This document shows positions 1,429-10,315 of a DNA stretch of 64,000 nucleotides, one piece after another. The DNA lies in NCBI GenBank assembly GCA_001468865.1, contig LDIY01000042.1:22066-86065 (forward strand), read 5' to 3'. The number at the start of each line of letters is the position of its first letter. Position 1 is the first letter of the stretch. The notes beneath the pieces are model-generated. The model had not been told where the DNA came from and did no database searches. It worked only from the letters and a program-made list of their open reading frames with translations. A program made the translations under genes and the position numbers. The stretch is from a candidate division TM6 bacterium SOIL31 (GTDB taxonomy: Bacteria; Babelota; Babeliae; Babelales; Vermiphilaceae).

Positions 1429-2187
1429 ATGGAAAGCATTATAAAATACACACTTCTTGCGCTATTTTTTTTCTCAAAAATTTCGGCAGATATCATAGAA
1501 AGTGATAAACTTGAAACAGTTCTTAATTATCTCGATACACCAAATACGCTCGTTATTTTTGATATTGATAATACACTAGCCCGCACCATAACAGAACTTG
1601 GCAGTGATGAATGGTTTTGTGATTTAGTGGATAAAAAGATGGCCGAAGGCCATGATTATATTACCTCTATTTACTATGCATTGCCTGCCACTTTTTATGC
1701 ACAATTTAATATTGGCTTACGGCCTACCGAAGAAGTAGCTGCAGAGCTGATAGCAAATTTAATTGATCAAAAAATCCCCGTAATGGCTCTGACCACCCGA
1801 AGCATTTTTGTAACAGAAAGAACGATGGAGCAGTTGGAAAATATCGGTATTTCATTTCTTATTCCAAGCATAAGCCAAGAAGACTTAGTTCTGCAGATGC
1901 CACATCCCTGTTTTTATCGACAAAGCATTTTATTTGGCGGCAACAATGATAAAGGAGAAGCACTGATTACGTTTTTCCATTGGATGAATTATTTTCCCAC
2001 AAGAGTCGTATTCATTGATGATAAGATGAAATATCTTTTGGCTGTTGAGAAAGCGTTAAAACACTATAATATAGAATTTGTTGGCATTCGGTACGCAGGA
2101 TGCGATGAATGCGTAAAAAATTTCGATGCTACCAAAGCTGAAGAACAGTGGAATAGGTTGCGACATAAAAAGGAACAGTACTCATGA
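1429..2187 (+). CDS. Secreted HAD-superfamily hydrolase-like protein
   Basis: ATG 1429 preceded by AGGAGG (1411-1416). Hydrophobic N-terminus. HAD motif I LVIFDIDNTLAR and late motif VVFIDDK. Confidence 0.7.
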   Translation: MESIIKYTLLALFFFSKISADIIESDKLETVLNYLDTPNTLVIFDIDNTLARTITELGSDEWFCDLVDKKMAEGHDYITSIYYALPATFYAQFNIGLRPTEEVAAELIANLIDQKIPVMALTTRSIFVTERTMEQLENIGISFLIPSISQEDLVLQMPHPCFYRQSILFGGNNDKGEALITFFHWMNYFPTRVVFIDDKMKYLLAVEKALKHYNIEFVGIRYAGCDECVKNFDATKAEEQWNRLRHKKEQYS

Positions 2188-2621
2188 ATAAAATTATAAA
2201 AAAGATCATAGTATTATGCTTGACCATGTGCTCCACAATCACCTTACGCACACACTGCATGCTCGCACAAATGCTCGCGGGAAAACAGAAATTCGGCAGA
2301 CATCCTCAGACTTTATTGCGCAAAAAAGTCGTTTTATCCCAATCCCGATTCCGCTTGCTATTTCGTCAACACCGATTTTATAATGCGGGCGTAGAAGTAA
2401 CTAATGCTCAGATTTTACTTGCGGTAGAAGAAACTAATCGTAAAATGGATGCCATTTTAAATGAAATCAGAAAACAATCTTTGCAAACACCAGTAATCAC
2501 CCCTGTCACCACAATGGCACGCAATGAAGCAGATTATAACTATAAACCCAACAATCGGCAACCAAATGAACCAAGTGAACCTGATTTATCGCAGTATAAT
2601 ATGCATTATGGCAATAGATAA
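2184..2621 (+). CDS. Small exported basic protein (leader-Met family)
   Basis: 4-nt overlap with the upstream gene. Leader ...LRTHCM followed by basic stretch LAGKQKFGRHPQTLLRKK. Resembles the 6534-8429 array proteins. Confidence 0.6.
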   Translation: MNKIIKKIIVLCLTMCSTITLRTHCMLAQMLAGKQKFGRHPQTLLRKKVVLSQSRFRLLFRQHRFYNAGVEVTNAQILLAVEETNRKMDAILNEIRKQSLQTPVITPVTTMARNEADYNYKPNNRQPNEPSEPDLSQYNMHYGNR

Positions 2622-3077: not shown

Positions 3078-4181
3078 CTAAAGTATAGTGCATTGCTCTG
3101 CTGGCTTAACTAAATATTGTTGTCTTTTTTGTTCGAATGTTTTCTGTGCTTGTTCTTTTTTATTTAGTACACCTGTCATAATCCATGATTTTCCCACATT
3201 AAGCACATCTTCTCTATTATCTTTATATCCTATTGAATTGGTAATATATGAAAGAGTACTGTTTTTTGATGCATTTGAATCAGTACACGATAACAACGTA
3301 TCTGCAGTCTTTTCTTGCGCAGCAACTAATATTTTAAATTCTTCAGAATCACCATATTTTGGAATTCGATCAACTAAAGTAACACTATTTTTCTCGAACT
3401 CTTTTGCCTCTTGTTGCAACACAGATTGTCGATGATTAAATTCTTCTACTTTTGTAGAAGTCGGAAACCAAATTGCTTTTTTTATTTCATTTACGAGAAT
3501 CTCACTTTTATGTCGGATTTGATCTGAATCCTCTTTAAGTACCGCCACCGCATACTGGTGTACATCTCTTTCGAGCCCATGTTGCTCAACAAGATGTATA
3601 TGCTCATGCCCAAGCGCATGTTTTTGTACAAAAAGAGGTGCTCTATTTCTGAGCAAAGAAGAAATTCCCAGGTACATACCCGATATTGGCGCATTGGTCT
3701 GCATAGGATTAACTCGAGCATACGCAAGATTTCCGGGAATTTCGTCGATTCCTATATGAAAACTATGAGGGTTAGTTCCTTCTCGCGCACATTCTTCTTT
3801 TACAATGTTATATATGGGGTGAGAAGTTATTTCTGGATGGTGAATCGTATTAAAATTATTGCCCGGTTGATACAAAGCCTTTTTATTTCCTGCTTTATCA
3901 GTATCTTTTTTTGCTCTAATTTTTTGCCACATTCCATCGCTCAATCCCCAGAATTTCTTAACGCCCTCTTGCGCGGCCTTTTCGTTATCGTGTAAATAAG
4001 TTACCATATTTCCACGGTAATTTTTGAGCGCAACCTGTCCAATGGTTGATGGCGTAAAAAGAACACCCCACGAAGGCATTTGTGGCTTTTTCGGTTCATT
4101 TTCAGAGCCCATCATTGCAATAGAAACAGCCGATAAGGCAAATGCAGCGACAATGCTGCCTAAACGTACTTTTTTCATCAT
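3078..4181 (-). CDS. Exported protein with a single HExxH motif (putative Zn-metallopeptidase)
   Basis: GGGGGA RBS before ATG 4181. Signal-like leader ending SIAMM. Motif ALGHEHIHLVEQHG. Confidence 0.5.
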   Translation of the reverse strand: MMKKVRLGSIVAAFALSAVSIAMMGSENEPKKPQMPSWGVLFTPSTIGQVALKNYRGNMVTYLHDNEKAAQEGVKKFWGLSDGMWQKIRAKKDTDKAGNKKALYQPGNNFNTIHHPEITSHPIYNIVKEECAREGTNPHSFHIGIDEIPGNLAYARVNPMQTNAPISGMYLGISSLLRNRAPLFVQKHALGHEHIHLVEQHGLERDVHQYAVAVLKEDSDQIRHKSEILVNEIKKAIWFPTSTKVEEFNHRQSVLQQEAKEFEKNSVTLVDRIPKYGDSEEFKILVAAQEKTADTLLSCTDSNASKNSTLSYITNSIGYKDNREDVLNVGKSWIMTGVLNKKEQAQKTFEQKRQQYLVKPAEQCTIL

Positions 4182-4453
4182 ATGATCCCCCTATTAAAAA
4201 CTGAGAAATAGTCTTATTATCAGCCTAACAAAACTATTCAAATTGTCAATTCGGCCATAGATTGTGCCTATTTAAGGCATATTTTCGGGGACCACGATCA
4301 CACAAGAAGAAAGATAATGGATTAAAACTGACTCGTGGAATTGGCAAATCAACCTTGGGAAAAAAGGATATTTTGAGTTCAGAGATAGGTTCTATCTTCG
4401 ACTTTCTACGTTTTTTATACTATGTTGTCTTCAAAAAAACACGAAAGCCATCA

Positions 4454-5437
4454 ATGAAGTACACCAAGATAATTCACATCTTTCTCATAAATCTGTTTTT
4501 ATGCATAGCAAGCATCAAATCGGAAGGATTTATTTCTAACACTTTAATTAAAACTCCTTCAGGATATAGCACTGTCGATGCTCTTTTACTCGGCGATACA
4601 ATTGTAAGCCCTTCGGCCGATATCATACCGATTGCCCGAGTCAATCAATGCCGTTATACTTCTTGCATAAAAATCACCATGGAAGATATTTGCCTTCATT
4701 GTGCACCAGATCAAAAGTTATATTCGTATAATTATCAACAATGGATATGCGCTCAAGATTTAAAATCTACTGACTTTTTGATTGATTACCAAAAAAATCC
4801 TGTAGCTATTGATACAATCGAAATTATTAAACAAGAGTGTCTTTTCTATGCTCTTTCTTTAGATACAAACCATACCTTCTGTGTATCACCCCTTGATATT
4901 GTTGCTCACAACGCCGCCCCTATTATGGTTGTTATGGTTATAGAAACTATCGCAGAGATAGCTCCGATTATCAAAACAGGCCTTACTATTGGTGCAACGC
5001 TTCTTAGAGCTCATTTTGCAAAGAAGAGAGCTCATAAGAAATTTTCTTCAAATGCACACAATGATGTTCCATCTAATAATTATAGTTATAACTCACCAGA
5101 TCCCAATGATCCAAATAATAACCAAAACAAAGAGCATCCTCATGGCATTTATAAAGATGCTCCATATCATCACAAAAATTCGCGTCGCAAAAGCAAATGT
5201 CCTAATAATGGACAACACTGTCTTGATTATTCGCTACCAACAAAGACTAAGCAAAGAATTGCTATAGAAGGAGATTCTTTCGTAGTTCTTCATTATACAC
5301 GTCAAGGCGAATATCATGGATTTAAAGTGGATTGGAACAATTTGCATGATTCATTAAGAAGAATTCTAATTGAACATGGTTTTGTAAAAGAAACTGGAAA
5401 AATAATTAAACACATAACTGAAAAATGGCCTTCATGA
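4454..5437 (+). CDS. Hint-domain protein with C-terminal toxin-like module (polymorphic-toxin-like)
   Basis: ATG 4454 gives the leader MKYTKIIHIFLINLFLCIASIKS. Hint blocks: GFISNTLIKTPSGYSTVDALLLGDTIV, QWICAQDLKSTDFLI, FYALSLDTNHTFCVSPLDIVAHN. These are followed by a hydrophobic segment, an N/P-rich linker and a ~100-aa basic C-terminal domain (HGIYKDAPYHHKN...KSKCPNNGQHCLDYS...GEYHGFKVDW). Confidence 0.65.
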   Translation: MKYTKIIHIFLINLFLCIASIKSEGFISNTLIKTPSGYSTVDALLLGDTIVSPSADIIPIARVNQCRYTSCIKITMEDICLHCAPDQKLYSYNYQQWICAQDLKSTDFLIDYQKNPVAIDTIEIIKQECLFYALSLDTNHTFCVSPLDIVAHNAAPIMVVMVIETIAEIAPIIKTGLTIGATLLRAHFAKKRAHKKFSSNAHNDVPSNNYSYNSPDPNDPNNNQNKEHPHGIYKDAPYHHKNSRRKSKCPNNGQHCLDYSLPTKTKQRIAIEGDSFVVLHYTRQGEYHGFKVDWNNLHDSLRRILIEHGFVKETGKIIKHITEKWPS

Positions 5438-6063
5438 AAAAATCAACACATTGGATAAACTTTTCGATCGATAAACATACGAAAATATCTATTCCCTTAG
5501 AAGACCCTATTGAATATCTTGGTCCTGCGTACCAAGAAAATATTCTATTATTTTATAATAAGCACAAAATTGTACTTTCTGATTCTACAATCTATCACGA
5601 TATGATGGAATTAGCTAAGTCTCTAAAAAAGGCGCTTAACCAAGAACTTATTTTGCATTCTTCTATCATAAAAGATATCGGCTATCTTTATAACGAGTAT
5701 CATTATGACGATGCAAATTTTACAAAGCATACATTTTCGAACGGATTTATTGGTTGGGTAGGATGCCTAAATCATCTTTGGGAATCTCTTTCTCATTTTA
5801 ATTCCTGGATATACAATGCTCCGGATGGTTCAATCATTTTTGAAGTTACACTGCTTTATCCTTATATGTACTGCGAACCCGAAGAAGAACCTGATTATAT
5901 CTCCTATGAAGAATGGATTAAAACATATAAACCATATTTTATTACAACAATATCAAAAGAAACTGCTCTGCAATGGCTTGAGCAAGCAGAGCGTATTATA
6001 AAAATAGTTGAAGACAACCAAAAAAGATGGGATAGCATGCCCAAAGAAGACGTGGAGAGTTAA
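5434..6063 (+). CDS. Candidate cognate immunity protein (hypothetical, acidic, cytoplasmic)
   Basis: ATG 5434 overlaps the upstream stop as ATGA (an alternative ATG is at 5425). No signal peptide. Call rests on position immediately 3' of the toxin-like gene. Confidence 0.45.
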   Translation: MKKSTHWINFSIDKHTKISIPLEDPIEYLGPAYQENILLFYNKHKIVLSDSTIYHDMMELAKSLKKALNQELILHSSIIKDIGYLYNEYHYDDANFTKHTFSNGFIGWVGCLNHLWESLSHFNSWIYNAPDGSIIFEVTLLYPYMYCEPEEEPDYISYEEWIKTYKPYFITTISKETALQWLEQAERIIKIVEDNQKRWDSMPKEDVES

Positions 6064-6459
6064 TTATAGAACCTCTGGATACTTTTCTGGATCTGCACGA
6101 CAATATTTTTCGCCATAACCACCTGCTGGATGCTCTGCAATGGTGACAAATGCACGATCAAAAAAACCGCCTTTATGATCGCGTTTTTCAGTCTGCCGCA
6201 CACGAACTTCATCCAAGGATATTTGGTGCAACATGCACATGGCATCAACCACTTCGAGCACATCTGCCAATTCTTCAATCAGTTGTTCTCGCGTTTGAGC
6301 TGCACATATTTCTTGAACTTCTTCCACCAGCTTAATCTTCAATTGCTTTTCATATTCAGTATCGTCAAGTTCTTTAATATGCACTATTGATCCTATTGCT
6401 CGCATCAAATCAGGAGCTTTATCTCTCCATAGCTTATTTTGCAAAAATTTATGCATCAT
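6064..6459 (-). CDS. MazG-like nucleoside triphosphate pyrophosphohydrolase
   Basis: N-terminal KLWRDKAPDLM and EELADVLEVVDAM, typical of small all-alpha MazG/HisE-type NTP-PPases. Confidence 0.75.
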   Translation of the reverse strand: MMHKFLQNKLWRDKAPDLMRAIGSIVHIKELDDTEYEKQLKIKLVEEVQEICAAQTREQLIEELADVLEVVDAMCMLHQISLDEVRVRQTEKRDHKGGFFDRAFVTIAEHPAGGYGEKYCRADPEKYPEVL

Positions 6460-6533
6460 AATTTTCCATTTCTATGACTTATGTGTTACATCTCAGTTAT
6501 AAAGAGTATATCACCATTAAAAAGGATAACATT

Positions 6534-6794
6534 ATGAAACATATCAATCATATAGTGATTATTGCGGGAATCTTACTGACATGCGCCGACACATACAGCA
6601 TGAAAGCTCTTCAAAGATTACCCAAAAACACCCATCGCAAACCAACACCAAAAAAAGTGCATTATAGATCCAATACATCAAAGAAAAAAAAGGCTGAATA
6701 TCGCAATGAATTACGGCGACTCAATAACCAACACGAAGTAATATTTAGGTATTATCAATCATCTGCGGGTCTTTTTGAAGGCGATCCTGAATAA
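6534..6794 (+). CDS. Small exported basic protein (leader-Met family, array member 1)
   Basis: ATG 6534 after AAAAGGA. Leader ...CADTYSM, then KALQRLPKNTHRKPTPKK. Confidence 0.6.
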   Translation: MKHINHIVIIAGILLTCADTYSMKALQRLPKNTHRKPTPKKVHYRSNTSKKKKAEYRNELRRLNNQHEVIFRYYQSSAGLFEGDPE

Positions 6795-6897
6795 AAAAAC
6801 TGATTTATTTTCTTGGCTATCTTTTTTGCCAACCAACAGAAAAAACGCTATAGTTAATCAACTTAAAATATAAACAATTTTTTTTATTGGTTATTTC

Positions 6898-7308
6898 ATG
6901 ACACAAACAATCAATTTAAGCTTTTTCATACTCGCATTAATGAGCAGTACTAATACGCTTGGCATGCTTGCTATTCGTGCGTGCCACCAGTCGCATCGGG
7001 TTATTACCATCCGGCAACAGCAAAGATGGTGTAACAAAATGTCTCCCCCAGCACGCATAGAATTCATTCAAGCATTTGTAAGAGCAAATTATGAGATTGA
7101 AAAAATTATGGATCGCAATCATCAAGCAATAATGATTATGCTTGAGCAAAATAGAATCGGCCAACAAATTATTACAGCTAACTTGAAATCTATCGGAAAC
7201 CTTAAAAGCAACACCAATTACTGCGAAATATACGACATGAGAGAAGGTGTCGAATTATTTGATCAATTGGAAAAACGATTAACAAAATCAGATCAATCTT
7301 TTGAATAA
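6898..7308 (+). CDS. Small exported protein (leader-Met family, array member 2)
   Basis: Leader ...STNTLGM, then LAIRACHQSHRVITIRQQQRW. Confidence 0.65.
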   Translation: MTQTINLSFFILALMSSTNTLGMLAIRACHQSHRVITIRQQQRWCNKMSPPARIEFIQAFVRANYEIEKIMDRNHQAIMIMLEQNRIGQQIITANLKSIGNLKSNTNYCEIYDMREGVELFDQLEKRLTKSDQSFE

Positions 7309-7317
7309 GGAAAAGTA

Positions 7318-8025
7318 ATGAAAAAAATAATTATTCTCGGTACTATTATCACTACGATCAGCAGCAATAATGCATTAGCAATGCTTTTACTCGGCCGCCT
7401 TAAGCAAACTCCAAAGCGACCATTAATAATAATGCAACAGCAAAGATCGACATATCCACCATCAAAAAAAATAGTCACTACCACCCCAAATATATTTAAT
7501 ACCCCTCTCAATTCTTCATCCGATGATACTATTAAAGAACTTTTGAAAGATCATAATAAGAGAAATGAGAAGCTTAAAATACTATTGGCTGCCCACAAAA
7601 AATCATCGCAACTTATTGAAGGAGATGTGGCCGAGCAAACAAGCATTATTAATAATACATTGTCTCTTGGTCAACCTGTCCCTGTTGCTGCCCTTGATGA
7701 AATAGAAAAGCGACTAAGAAATCGTATCGGCGAGCATATATCATTGGGGGGTGCCATTATACAAGAAGCTGATCGTCTTCATAAAATAGAAACAACAAGA
7801 AGCATGTCGAACGAGACAACTATATTCAATGCTCAAATAGACTCTCTCCCAAAAAACGAGGTCTATGGCTTACTAGAAGATCTTTATGACAGAAATCAAT
7901 CAATTGCTAAAGTGATAGAAACGCAGCAAAATATAGCAGTAGACCATACATTTTATGAGGTCCCTTTAAATATGGAGCGCTTGAAAGAAGCAGAGATGAC
8001 ATTAAAAGATCTGCTCAAAGAATAG
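7318..8025 (+). CDS. Exported protein (leader-Met family, array member 3)
   Basis: AAGGAAAAG before the ATG. Leader ...SNNALAM, then LLLGRLKQTPKRPLIIMQQQRS. Confidence 0.65.
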   Translation: MKKIIILGTIITTISSNNALAMLLLGRLKQTPKRPLIIMQQQRSTYPPSKKIVTTTPNIFNTPLNSSSDDTIKELLKDHNKRNEKLKILLAAHKKSSQLIEGDVAEQTSIINNTLSLGQPVPVAALDEIEKRLRNRIGEHISLGGAIIQEADRLHKIETTRSMSNETTIFNAQIDSLPKNEVYGLLEDLYDRNQSIAKVIETQQNIAVDHTFYEVPLNMERLKEAEMTLKDLLKE

Positions 8026-8036
8026 AAGGAATGTTA

Positions 8037-8429
8037 ATGAAAAAATTCATTATTTTTATTTTATTGTTATCAAGCACTCATAGTGCACTGAGCATGTTCC
8101 GCTACATTCGCTTTGCTCAAACACACCCTCGCACACAGCCTTTACGTGCAAAACTTGTTTGCACAAAACCAATCGCTCCCCCGCACAATGAAATACTTGA
8201 GTTACTTAAAACCATTAAGGAACAAAATGAGACTCTTATCACACAAAACCATCGATTTTTTGAAATACTCAGTAACGAATTTCATTTTTCTAAGATAGAT
8301 TATGAGGGAAGAAAATATCTCCGCGAATTTTACAAAAAGAATAATATTGATTTGTGTGTTGATGACAGTTATGGATATAATCCAAGAACCACTGGTTATC
8401 GAAATGATGGTTGGAACTCTCCATACTAA
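8037..8429 (+). CDS. Small exported protein (leader-Met family, array member 4)
   Basis: ATG 8037 is 6 nt after AAGGA; ATG 8031 is too close to it. Leader ...THSALSM, then FRYIRFAQTHPRTQPLRAK. Confidence 0.65.
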   Translation: MKKFIIFILLLSSTHSALSMFRYIRFAQTHPRTQPLRAKLVCTKPIAPPHNEILELLKTIKEQNETLITQNHRFFEILSNEFHFSKIDYEGRKYLREFYKKNNIDLCVDDSYGYNPRTTGYRNDGWNSPY

Positions 8430-8446: not shown

Positions 8447-10315
8447 TTATTCCACCGTTACTGATTTTGCGAGATTGCGCGGTTTGTCGATTGGACACCC
8501 GCGCTCTTTTGCGACTGCATAGATAAAATATTGCACCAAACCAATCATTGCCAAAGGACCAAGCAACGCGGGAATCTCAGCAGAAATAGTAAATGCTGTT
8601 TCTGCCAATTCAATCAATTCATTTTGATCAGCATACGCAAACGCAATAATAATGCCGCCGCGCGCTTTTACTTCATTGGCATTGGAAAGAAGTTTTTGGT
8701 AAATAATGGGATCACGATGAGAAAAAATATAGACAGGCATATTTTTATCAACCAATGCAAGTGGACCGTGTTTCAATTCCCCTGCTGCATAACTTTCAGC
8801 AAAAACGTACGCAATCTCTTTTAATTTTAATGCCGCTTCCATTGCAAGCGGATAACTAATATGTCTTCCCAAAAATAATGCTTTATCATAATGCGCATAG
8901 TGCATTGCATGAATGTGATCAATTATATCTTTATGCTGTTCGAGCGCATTTTCCAGCACGTGTGCCACATGTATTATATCCATTTCTGCTTGTAGCAAAT
9001 TTTCTTGCATTATTGCATTTTTTGCGTATGCAAAATAATGCACAAACCAATAGAGCGCTGCCAACTGCGTGGAAAACGCTTTTGTTGAAGCAACAGCAAC
9101 CTCAGGACCAGCACAAGTAACTAAAAAGCCACCTGCTTCGCGCACAATGGTACTTGTTGCAACATTGGTAAGCGCAATGGTAGATAAACCATGCGCATTA
9201 ATCAATCGTAATGCCTCAAGAGCATCTGCCGTTTCGCCTGATTGAGAAATAATAACATACAGCGTATTTTTGTGGGGAAAAAAAGAGTTGTACCTAAATT
9301 CAGAAGCTAAATGTACACTTACCGGAATGTGTGCGACTGCTTCAAAAAAGAATTGCGCTATACGCGCTGCATGCCACGATGTTCCGCATGCCACAAAACA
9401 GATATTTTCGGTGTTTTTTATCTGATCGGTGGAAAATCCCAGCTGTTCAAGTAACATCGTTTTTTTTGACTGCAATGAATCAACCGTTTTGATGATAACA
9501 TTTTTTTGCTCATATATTTCTTTAAGCATAAAATGTGTGTGCTCACCTTTATCTGCCGTTTCAAACGTTGCAGCAGTATGATGAACAACAATGGATAATT
9601 CATTACCGGCAAAATCGTATATTTTTACGTTATTTTTGGTAACAAGCGCAAAACTTTCATCCGGTAAGAAAATAACTTTATTCGTTTTACCTGCAAATGC
9701 AATAACATCTGAAGCAATGAACATTTCATTATCGCCCATACCAATGCACAACGGAGATTTTTTACGGACAACAATCAAAAGATCGGGAAAAGTCTGAAGC
9801 ATTGCAATGAATGCATACGCACCATCAAGTTGCTGCACAATTGCAGCAACATCACCTGCATTAACATTTTCTTTTTCTTTGATCGGTTCAAAAAGATGAC
9901 TAATAACTTCCGTATCAGTATCAGAAAAGAATGTATGTCCTTCATACAGCATATCTTCTTTTAATTTTAGATAATTTTCAATAATGCCATTATGCACCAC
10001 CGAAATGGTTTTTGAACAATCAAAATGAGGATGAGCATTTTCCTGAGACGTATCACCATGGGTGGACCATCGAGTATGACCGATACCCAAAAAGCCATCG
10101 ATGGGTTCCTTTTTTACCCGTTCGGTAAGATTAATTAACTGACCAGAAGACTTAGAATAAAGAAGTTTATGAGAATTGGCATCAAGACACGCAAAACCCG
10201 CGGAATCATATCCACGATATTCAAGGCGCGCAAGTCCTTCAAAAATGAAGGTACTGCAGAAAGAATTTCCTATGTAGCCAACAACAGTACACACTACTCT
10301 CTTCCTTTTATTCAT
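8447..10315 (-). CDS. glmS: Glutamine--fructose-6-phosphate aminotransferase
   Basis: Full-length GlmS: N-terminal CTVVGYIG, two SIS domains, canonical C-terminus KPRNLAKSVTVE. The true start is probably GTG at 10294, directly before the catalytic Cys codon. Confidence 0.95.
   Translation of the reverse strand: MNKRKRVVCTVVGYIGNSFCSTFIFEGLARLEYRGYDSAGFACLDANSHKLLYSKSSGQLINLTERVKKEPIDGFLGIGHTRWSTHGDTSQENAHPHFDCSKTISVVHNGIIENYLKLKEDMLYEGHTFFSDTDTEVISHLFEPIKEKENVNAGDVAAIVQQLDGAYAFIAMLQTFPDLLIVVRKKSPLCIGMGDNEMFIASDVIAFAGKTNKVIFLPDESFALVTKNNVKIYDFAGNELSIVVHHTAATFETADKGEHTHFMLKEIYEQKNVIIKTVDSLQSKKTMLLEQLGFSTDQIKNTENICFVACGTSWHAARIAQFFFEAVAHIPVSVHLASEFRYNSFFPHKNTLYVIISQSGETADALEALRLINAHGLSTIALTNVATSTIVREAGGFLVTCAGPEVAVASTKAFSTQLAALYWFVHYFAYAKNAIMQENLLQAEMDIIHVAHVLENALEQHKDIIDHIHAMHYAHYDKALFLGRHISYPLAMEAALKLKEIAYVFAESYAAGELKHGPLALVDKNMPVYIFSHRDPIIYQKLLSNANEVKARGGIIIAFAYADQNELIELAETAFTISAEIPALLGPLAMIGLVQYFIYAVAKERGCPIDKPRNLAKSVTVE

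Follow-up and report, generated by a model that had tools for sequence, protein, structure and literature searches.

A predicted Hint-bearing toxin of the CdiA-CT 5T87 family with a candidate immunity gene in a Babeliales (Dependentiae) bacterium

We analysed a stretch of 64,000 nucleotides from contig LDIY01000042.1 of candidate division TM6 bacterium SOIL31 (the whole stretch is referred to here as the window), focusing on two adjacent open reading frames (ORFs) of its forward strand, ORF A (4454..5437) and ORF B (5434..6063). Sequence comparisons indicate that the two genes are a toxin/immunity module of the polymorphic-toxin kind in a Babeliales (Dependentiae) bacterium, in which ORF A probably encodes a Hint-bearing toxin of the 5T87 family and ORF B the protein that confers immunity to it. 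The toxin family (5T87), the PT-HINT domain and the Sec-HINT-toxin layout are all of already known kinds. Judging from the sequences compared, what is apparently new is a Hint domain predicted to cleave at its C-terminus only, a membrane segment placed after the cleavage site, their occurrence together with a 5T87 toxin, a second immunity family, and the expansion of the module in Babeliales.

The ORF A gene and its layout

ORF A, the predicted precursor of a Hint-processed toxin, encodes 327 amino acids (aa) plus a stop codon and begins with ATG. Because its full-length homologs reach E 1e-132, we consider it a real gene starting at the ATG at 4454, and not a chance ORF. The 18 close homologs were alike in length and layout, and a gene identical to ORF A had been called on the 211-kb JGI soil metagenome contig soilH2_10000579, to which the window belongs. 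A longer TTG start at 4262 is used neither by the homologs nor by the gene callers.

All 327 aa could be assigned. Hydropathy and charge delimited a Sec-type leader (aa 1-24, 4454..4525, + strand, as are all the parts of ORF A), composed of MKYTK, a hydrophobic core of 16 aa and then IKS/E. Behind it lie a Hint domain of the bacterial intein-like/PT-HINT type, recognised by an AlphaFold2 model, Foldseek and a family profile (aa 25-153, 4526..4912), and a Kyte-Doolittle hydrophobic segment whose first residue is the one after the predicted Asn153 cleavage site (aa 154-188, 4913..5017). A basic cluster (AKKRAHKK) and a disordered linker rich in Asn, Pro and Asp come next, as seen in charge and in the predicted local distance difference test score, pLDDT (aa 189-226, 5018..5131), and the protein ends with a C-terminal toxin domain assigned by profile comparison with PDB to the CdiA-CT 5T87_E family (aa 227-327, 5132..5434).

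This order of leader, Hint, hydrophobic segment, Asn/Pro linker and basic C-terminal module had been described in an earlier, sequence-only reading of the locus, and it was confirmed by the ORF, its hydropathy, the isoelectric point (pI) and the structural model. The same reading had seen neither an RHS nor a filamentous nor an LXG delivery region, which agrees with the full assignment of the 327 aa to other parts; no Pfam match to a two-partner secretion (TPS) domain, to filamentous haemagglutinin repeats or to the VENN pre-toxin motif was found in them.

The leaders of the homologs end in AxA-like motifs that directly adjoin the Hint 'EGF' (AHA|EGF in protein P0094, for example, and QA|EGF in others), and for this reason we infer that the mature ORF A product would begin about one residue ahead of Hint position 1. 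A scan for promoters and terminators gave counts no higher than the shuffle expectation.

The C-terminal toxin domain

A profile of 18 C-terminal modules matched chain E of PDB entry 5T87, the CdiA toxin of Cupriavidus taiwanensis, with E 5.1e-13 and 52 bits over 69 profile positions (22-90). The elements KSxxPxxGQxxLxxS, R, an FVV strand, YHGH, W and GK are common to the module and to 5T87_E. By this match the last 101 residues of ORF A are assigned to the CdiA-CT 5T87_E toxin family, giving a name to a module for which the sequence-only reading had proposed none. In CDD, model cd20695 represents the 5T87 toxin family and cd20694 its immunity partner (PMC9111745). The module of ORF A is basic (pI 9.55). 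A Pfam scan of the 18 modules detected no toxin family and no BECR family, and a Foldseek search of the full-length ORF A model against PDB and BFVD returned matches for the Hint domain only and none for the toxin.

An exhaustive search with the toxin profile recovered 958 cluster representatives at E<=1e-3, 546 of them at E<=1e-10. One match was discarded: P0072 (3015 aa, with 16 matched stretches) is a repetitive PKD/REJ-like protein whose summed match was considered spurious. The domain forms the exact C-terminus in 140 of 164 family proteins, as it does in ORF A, and it was found on RHS proteins (Vallitalea, Ralstonia), on CdiA (5T87), on the long PT-HINT proteins P0087, P0093 and P0107, in a Hint cassette of Neisseria and in proteins with the compact layout of ORF A.

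In 90% or more of the 164 members the following residues were conserved: G231, Y233, Y238, H239 (99%), K246 (96%), P250, G253, Q254, L257, S260, R268, V277, H288, G289, W294, L305, G315, K316 and I317. The most conserved polar residues among them are His239, Lys246, Arg268 and His288, and Gln254 is also invariant. In the model, the toxin core consists of a helix (253-258), four strands (260-262, 267-272, 275-283 and 286-292) and a second helix (299-307), with pLDDT 80-94; this order of predicted secondary structure agrees with the definition of BECR ribonucleases (RNases), in a comparison of the order of the elements. Because of the two near-invariant His residues, the Lys and the Arg, together with the BECR-like order, we see about an even chance that the toxin would be a small metal-independent RNase.

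The crystallised 5T87 fragment starts after the equivalent of Lys246 and hence does not contain the conserved GxYxDAxYH...K motif, which is disordered in the ORF A model. From this alignment, the 5T87 structure may miss part of the active site.

The ORF B gene, a candidate immunity gene

ORF B (5434..6063, + strand), the predicted cognate immunity protein, has 209 aa plus a stop codon and directly follows the toxin. As the sequence-only reading had pointed out, its start at 5434 overlaps the stop codon of ORF A in an ATGA, it is acidic (pI 5.07) and it carries no leader; an alternative in-frame ATG lies at 5425. We found 50 homologs, some of them named Candidatus Babeliales, with 57-73% identity among close relatives, and conservation is higher in ORF B than over the whole of ORF A.

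Neither the single sequence nor a profile found a sequence relative of ORF B in Pfam, NCBIfam or PDB. Weak matches to HEPN (E 0.072) and Rota_NSP3 (E 0.02) were rejected, as nothing alike recurred at the profile level. The model of ORF B was confident (pLDDT 93.8, predicted template modelling score 0.89), and its one notable fold match was a weak one to the CdiI of Burkholderia dolosa, 5FFP (E 0.021, probability 0.97, template modelling (TM) score 0.50).

The position of ORF B recurs. In the 14 distinct toxin modules for which downstream DNA was available, among 17 loci, a match to the ORF B profile was always present downstream on the same strand, 2-83 nt past the toxin-domain match. Within this set the ORF B gene always follows the toxin domain, across phyla and delivery scaffolds. 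ORF B homologs are also encoded by the gene that has a 4-bp overlap with the RHS toxin of Vallitalea guaymasensis (hhalign 98.5%, E 3e-15) and by the one, again with a 4-bp overlap, after the PT-HINT protein P0107, of 1377 aa (hhalign 99.4%, E 8e-22). The identities of toxin and ORF B co-varied (r 0.86, Mantel p 2e-4), which is consistent with co-evolution of the two proteins. The proposal that the downstream gene encodes immunity is supported by its adjacency in 14/14 modules.

In the proteobacterial members of the toxin family, the next gene encodes a helical protein of about 110 aa that is a homolog of the 5T87 CdiI (E 2e-7). ORF B could not be placed with this type: its profiles gave no match to 5T87_A at E<=10, and the comparison with the Ralstonia CdiI, a relative of 5T87_A, gave an hhalign probability of 0.06%. 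Because Proteobacteria pair the toxin with the CdiI type, to which ORF B is unrelated in these comparisons, a single toxin family is seen to have two unrelated immunity families, and the ORF B type is apparently the second of them, undescribed so far. An assignment of the pair to the type II toxin-antitoxin systems was also rejected, given that ORF B lies downstream, has 209 aa, folds confidently in the model and matches no DNA-binding family.

The homology to 5T87_E, the C-terminal position of the domain, its fusions to RHS and PT-HINT proteins and the constant presence of ORF B after it support the sequence-only reading, which had recognised a Hint-toxin-immunity arrangement here.

The Hint domain

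With ORF A alone, scans against Pfam and NCBIfam gave, besides noise, only sub-threshold matches (Pfam Hint_2, 20 bits; PT-HINT, 19.7 bits; E ~1e-3), and among 17 homologs of ORF A, PF07591 was on record in nine and PF13403 in one. A profile of 18 diverse N-terminal regions was matched to the intein-like domain 2LWY of C. thermocellum with E 6.9e-21 and to the BIL2 domain of Tetrahymena with E ~2e-18, so that the Hint domain recognised from the letters alone is found again at the level of the family. In the AlphaFold2 model aa 30-150 had pLDDT 90-96, and the top PDB matches found by Foldseek were the intein-like domains 6Y75 (E 4e-11) and 2LWY (TM score 0.88), followed by mini-inteins and hedgehog. 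These comparisons identify the ORF A Hint as a bacterial intein-like/PT-HINT domain.

The three Hint blocks quoted in the earlier reading all lie in aa 25-153, and the two departures from the canonical domain that it had noticed, a Gly at position 1 and an Ala after the terminal His-Asn, correspond to Gly25 and Ala154. In the residue-level alignment Gly25 stands opposite the C1A alanine of the crystal constructs 2LWY and 6TMM. An invariant Gln87 takes the place of the block-B His (APDQKFY in ORF A, TFDHPFY in the reference), so that both the Cys/Ser nucleophile of Hint position 1 and the T-x-x-H motif of block B are absent from ORF A. The C-terminal blocks NHTF...VAHN are conserved, with His140, His152 and Asn153 aligned with HTY...VHN of 2LWY. 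Across the 18 diverse sequences, Q87, W97, H140, H152 and N153 are invariant.

It is established for inteins that a Hint domain lacking Cys1 is unable to perform the N-terminal acyl shift, and that C-terminal cleavage by Asn cyclisation is still possible for it. Because ORF A has Gly25 at position 1 and Gln87 in place of the block-B His, neither N-terminal cleavage nor splicing is expected from its sequence, and cleavage at the C-terminus of the domain is likely. With the Hint domain at the mature N-terminus no N-extein would be left to release, which fits the loss of Cys1. With its position-1 Gly, its block-B Gln and the retained His-Asn, this variant is predicted to be a natural Hint domain of C-terminal cleavage only.

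Four family proteins (P0012, P0014, P0015 and P0017) have an in-frame deletion of Hint profile positions ~62-146, and their genes still encode the leader, the initial strands of the Hint domain, 'VHN', the hydrophobic segment and a complete toxin. P0014 and P0015 are encoded in tandem at L005:8001-8717 and 9342-10082, each one with its own ORF B.

A phage protein of BFVD, A0A8S5VVQ4 (318 aa), could be aligned with the model of the whole ORF A protein along 261 columns (E 1.1e-9). The alignment exceeds the Hint domain alone, and the overall layout of ORF A may be common to both proteins.

The hydrophobic segment and the linker

The hydrophobic segment of ORF A has a Kyte-Doolittle maximum of 1.99 over 19 aa, its Pro171 is invariant within the close family, and it appears in the AlphaFold2 model as a single long helix (160-198) of low confidence. 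In 51 proteins of the same layout, the segment had a median length of 37 aa and a median maximum Kyte-Doolittle value, over 19 aa, of 1.77. In the 51 proteins, the 12 aa counted from the K/R cluster had a net charge of about +3, compared with 0 ahead of His-Asn, and the C-terminal flank was the more positive one in 94% of them. The linker of ORF A had pLDDT <50 over aa 197-237.

In the Neisseria and Ralstonia relatives, no such insertion (a hydrophobic segment of ~37 aa plus a long linker) separates the toxin from the cleavage site. By sequence comparison, the placement of these two elements at that point is what distinguishes the compact layout.

Distribution of the compact layout and arrays of modules

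A profile of the Hint plus the hydrophobic segment matched 85 of the 164 toxin-family proteins, and some 50-60 cluster representatives of 294-400 aa have the compact order of leader, Hint, hydrophobic segment and toxin. Counted in clusters at 50% identity, at least about 50 are alike, and the layout, which the sequence-only reading had called unusually compact, is therefore not unusual in this lineage. One of the compact proteins, HLC06889.1, is already labelled by NCBI as 'polymorphic toxin-type HINT domain-containing protein', and an arrangement of Sec export with a HINT peptidase just ahead of the toxin has been described before (Zhang et al. 2012, PMC3482391).

The modules are repeated at several loci. 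An extra ORF B paralog was present at L003 and L009, and two tandem toxin/ORF B pairs at L005. Locus L017:212-3884 (Babeliales GCA_035455925.1) carries three consecutive C-terminal toxin (toxin-CT)/ORF B modules, of which two lack a Hint domain; its first toxin is either frameshifted or cut short, and a CT-only gene of 145 aa stands third. The toxins of these paralogs are 46-54% identical and the immunity proteins 56-61%. By analogy, the L017 modules resemble the orphan arrays of cdi and rhs loci.

At L012:7801-8785, two CdiI_ImmP genes (PF24172) follow the ORF B-type gene downstream of P0107, and in sequence they resemble orphan immunity genes from a different family. The locus has AAA ATPase genes on its upstream side and a VapE-like gene on its downstream side, neighbours that may indicate a mobile element.

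The sequence-only reading had also suggested comparing related genomes for exchange of the C-terminal domain between toxins, and no such exchange was found: every cassette relative recovered, in searches of low sensitivity, carried the same toxin family, and the pair is syntenic with that of the closest relative. A metagenome scan with the N-terminal cassette gave four loci, each one with the same toxin or cut off, and a scan of genome contigs with a narrow search pattern gave one genome only.

Lineage and neighbouring genes

The lineage is Babeliales/Dependentiae, and one of the related genomes is titled Candidatus Dependentiae bacterium AS-MICRO-OLR.1. Related contigs, of up to 1.0-1.2 Mb, carry ATP/ADP translocase, ankyrin-repeat and Fic genes, a gene content that, as annotated from sequence, agrees with life inside cells. 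The window has the gene order S41 peptidase, DUF2608, NUDIX, toxin, ORF B ... GlmS in common with the closest relative, L003, whose toxin protein is 63% identical to ORF A. This common order implies that the toxin/ORF B pair was inherited in place.

A gene for a MazG-like nucleoside triphosphate pyrophosphohydrolase of 131 aa (6064..6459, - strand; PF01503, 26 bits with a cut-off of 21.3; PF03819, 22 bits) is convergent with ORF B, and the two stop codons directly abut, in agreement with the tail-to-tail arrangement described before. Its orthologue, 73% identical, lies at L005:7496-7891, upstream and divergent at the toxin locus of AS-MICRO-OLR.1. The gene is missing from the position next to ORF B in L003 and L004, and in L003 the second ORF B paralog is found there. 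We treated the MazG-like gene as a neighbour because it is adjacent to the pair in two genomes on different sides and absent in two others.

Between the toxin locus and glmS, both the window (6474-8429 (+), in addition to 2184-2621 (+)) and L003 (7393-9716) contain an array of four to five small paralogous genes of 86-235 aa with no Pfam family on record. Their products have a leader 'MKKIII...SxNNAxxM(L)', an invariant Met near position 23, a basic stretch and the motifs 'L..L.DRN ... HTFY'. On the other side of ORF A, at 3078-4181 (-), the window encodes a protein of 367 aa with a leader and an HExxH motif ('LGHEHIHLVEQHG'), by which it is possibly a secreted metalloprotease. It gave no significant match in Pfam or NCBIfam, and it is absent from this position in L003.

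Proposed mechanism and alternative explanations

In the mechanism that we prefer, the Hint domain would be taken by the leader and the Sec pathway through the inner membrane, and signal peptidase would leave it at the mature N-terminus. Being unable to cut on its N-terminal side, the Hint domain would cut at its C-terminus by cyclisation of Asn153, helped by His140 and His152, and the freed fragment, from Ala154 onwards, would comprise the hydrophobic segment, the linker and the toxin. After release, this fragment may enter a target membrane by means of its hydrophobic N-terminus. The toxin would act as a small metal-independent RNase. In the cytoplasm of the producer, ORF B would bind the toxin and block it. 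Export of the toxin and its delivery to another cell we consider somewhat doubtful, and how or whether the toxin reaches another cell is the least supported, and the weakest, step of the preferred model.

Several observations weigh against this mechanism. Since the Sec leader is combined with a K/R cluster after the hydrophobic segment, the sequence predicts that this segment is a stop-transfer anchor, with the Hint outside and the toxin facing the cytoplasm of the producer. A toxin destined for release would need the opposite of a cytoplasmic location beside a leaderless ORF B; the predicted toxin-inside topology would not be expected of a weapon, and the textbook release model is in conflict with it and leaves it unexplained. 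To judge from the in-frame Hint deletions, in which leader, anchor and toxin are retained, some lineages may dispense with Hint cleavage, which would then not be needed in every case. As regards activity, the grounds for a putative RNase are the order of predicted secondary structure and the conserved His, Lys and Arg, while Glu272 is not conserved across the 164 proteins of the family and no published activity for the 5T87 toxin was found in the literature searched. The co-variation of toxin and ORF B would likewise be expected for any two linked genes with a common phylogeny. Finally, no other C-terminal toxin was found on this cassette, in N-terminal profile searches of low sensitivity (5 proteins, 4 loci).

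The topology raises the alternative of a membrane-tethered, cytoplasm-facing toxin that is never exported and serves as a device of addiction, dormancy or suicide, comparable to a toxin-antitoxin system held in the inner membrane, with the periplasmic Hint domain either vestigial or acting as a trigger. It would account for the positive-inside charge pattern and the hydrophobic segment of ~37 aa in the 51 proteins, for the leaderless ORF B, which would place both partners in one compartment, for the Hint-less in-frame variants that retain leader, anchor and toxin, and for the syntenic, vertical maintenance of the pair in a reduced genome of ~1-1.2 Mb. However, the same toxin domain ends exported RHS, CdiA and Hint toxins, and orphan toxin-CT/immunity arrays are a hallmark of competition loci. 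A vestigial Hint is, moreover, at odds with its invariant C-terminal chemistry, and ORF B, which lies downstream, is larger than the toxin, is well folded and has no DNA-binding domain, is unlike the type II antitoxins. On balance we consider this explanation unlikely.

An effector that the intracellular bacterium directs against its protist host instead of other bacteria, for example by cutting host RNA, with ORF B serving only for self-protection before export, is likewise rather unlikely. The Babeliales/Dependentiae lineage, the expansion of the toxin family in it, and the ATP/ADP translocase, ankyrin-repeat and Fic genes at related loci, typical of intracellular life, are in its favour, and the strong conservation of toxin and immunity protein with no observed C-terminal swapping would suit a stable host target better than an arms race among kin. 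Nevertheless, the need for an immunity protein implies that the target exists in bacteria too, and the diverged paralogous pairs within one locus (L017, L005) look like diversification of specificity between bacteria. In addition, no eukaryote-specific motif or domain was found in the module, and no export route to the host was evident.

We consider it improbable that the cassette is a self-contained device of an undescribed kind, for which the sequences would allow two forms. It could be a minimal Sec-dependent translocator, in which the Hint domain would cut itself off on the membrane's outer face and the freed hydrophobic N-terminus would take the RNase toxin into the membrane of a host or rival with no dedicated secretion system. 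Alternatively, it could be a toxin tethered to the inner membrane and facing the cytoplasm, whose fate would be set from the periplasm by Hint autoproteolysis and for which ORF B would be a new immunity fold. If true, either one would account for the retention and multiplication of the toxin/ORF B pair in an obligate intracellular lineage that has a genome of ~1 Mb.

That the locus is a functionless, decaying remnant of a larger polymorphic toxin gene, kept because loss of immunity is harmful or neutral, is very improbable: Rickettsia has degraded modules of the same toxin family (PMC9111745), and Hint-deleted variants and truncated or frameshifted toxin pieces occur at L005 and L017, but the ORFs are intact and full-length with the compact layout in about 50 or more clusters, the catalytic-type residues of the Hint and toxin domains are invariant, the leader junction is conserved and the locus is syntenic at 63% protein identity.

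The C-terminal module is now named and tied to a solved structure, 5T87. The ORF B type, with no Pfam or NCBIfam entry and no solved relative, could be submitted as an immunity family of its own. The little-studied Babeliales/Dependentiae, which parasitise protists from within their cells, possess this predicted Hint-processed toxin module and have expanded it, and no paper on such a module in the group was found in the literature searched.

Comparison with known systems

The CdiA-CT/CdiI pair of Cupriavidus taiwanensis (PDB 5T87) has a toxin domain homologous to that of ORF A. In contrast to ORF A, the 5T87 toxin ends a giant two-partner-secretion CdiA without a Hint domain, and its CdiI is a helical protein of ~116 aa unrelated to ORF B.

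Neisseria gonorrhoeae (L019:1018-1749) and Ralstonia wenshanensis (L018:913-1749) also encode members of this toxin family, which have the YKDAPYH motif, in both cases with an immunity gene directly after the toxin. In Neisseria the toxin is preceded, as in ORF A, by a Hint domain ending in VHN, but it starts ~12 aa after this motif, whereas in the RHS-CT protein of Ralstonia it starts 3 aa after the Rhs DPLGL site. The immunity proteins of both are of the 5T87_A CdiI type (E 2e-7) and not of the ORF B type. The complete toxin and CdiI-type pairs span L018:913-2078 (Ralstonia wenshanensis p56D2) and L019:1018-2081 (Neisseria gonorrhoeae). A second Hint-CT cassette, with a different C-terminus, lies at L019:2219-2656.

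The rCRCT-3a/rCRCA-3a modules of Rickettsia (PMC9111745; bioRxiv 10.1101/2023.02.26.530123) are also 5T87-family toxins of obligate intracellular bacteria without CdiB. They differ from the module described here in that they are often degraded, their antidotes have a CdiI_Ct-like domain and no cassette of leader, Hint and anchor has been described for them.

The Vallitalea guaymasensis protein WP_113672604.1 (L011) has the same C-terminal toxin domain, followed by an ORF B-type gene of 171 aa with a 4-bp overlap. Unlike ORF A, it is an RHS shell protein of 2169 aa from a free-living member of the Firmicutes, with neither a Hint domain nor a membrane segment before the toxin.

The Hint domain of ORF A is similar in fold and sequence to the intein-like domains 2LWY and Tetrahymena BUBL BIL2 (6TMM/6Y75) and to PT-HINT (PF07591), including the His...His-Asn end of blocks F/G. 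It differs from them in the Gly at position 1 and the invariant Gln in block B, by which only the C-terminal chemistry would be left, and in its place at the predicted mature N-terminus with essentially no N-extein.

The prePAAR effectors of type VI secretion systems (T6SS) also have a transmembrane helix at the N-terminus of a toxin acting in the cytoplasm, and this helix has been proposed to insert in the target membrane. Export of these effectors proceeds through the T6SS with the help of Eag chaperones, and they carry neither a Sec leader nor a Hint domain, whereas the helix of ORF A would first meet the Sec translocon of the producer itself.

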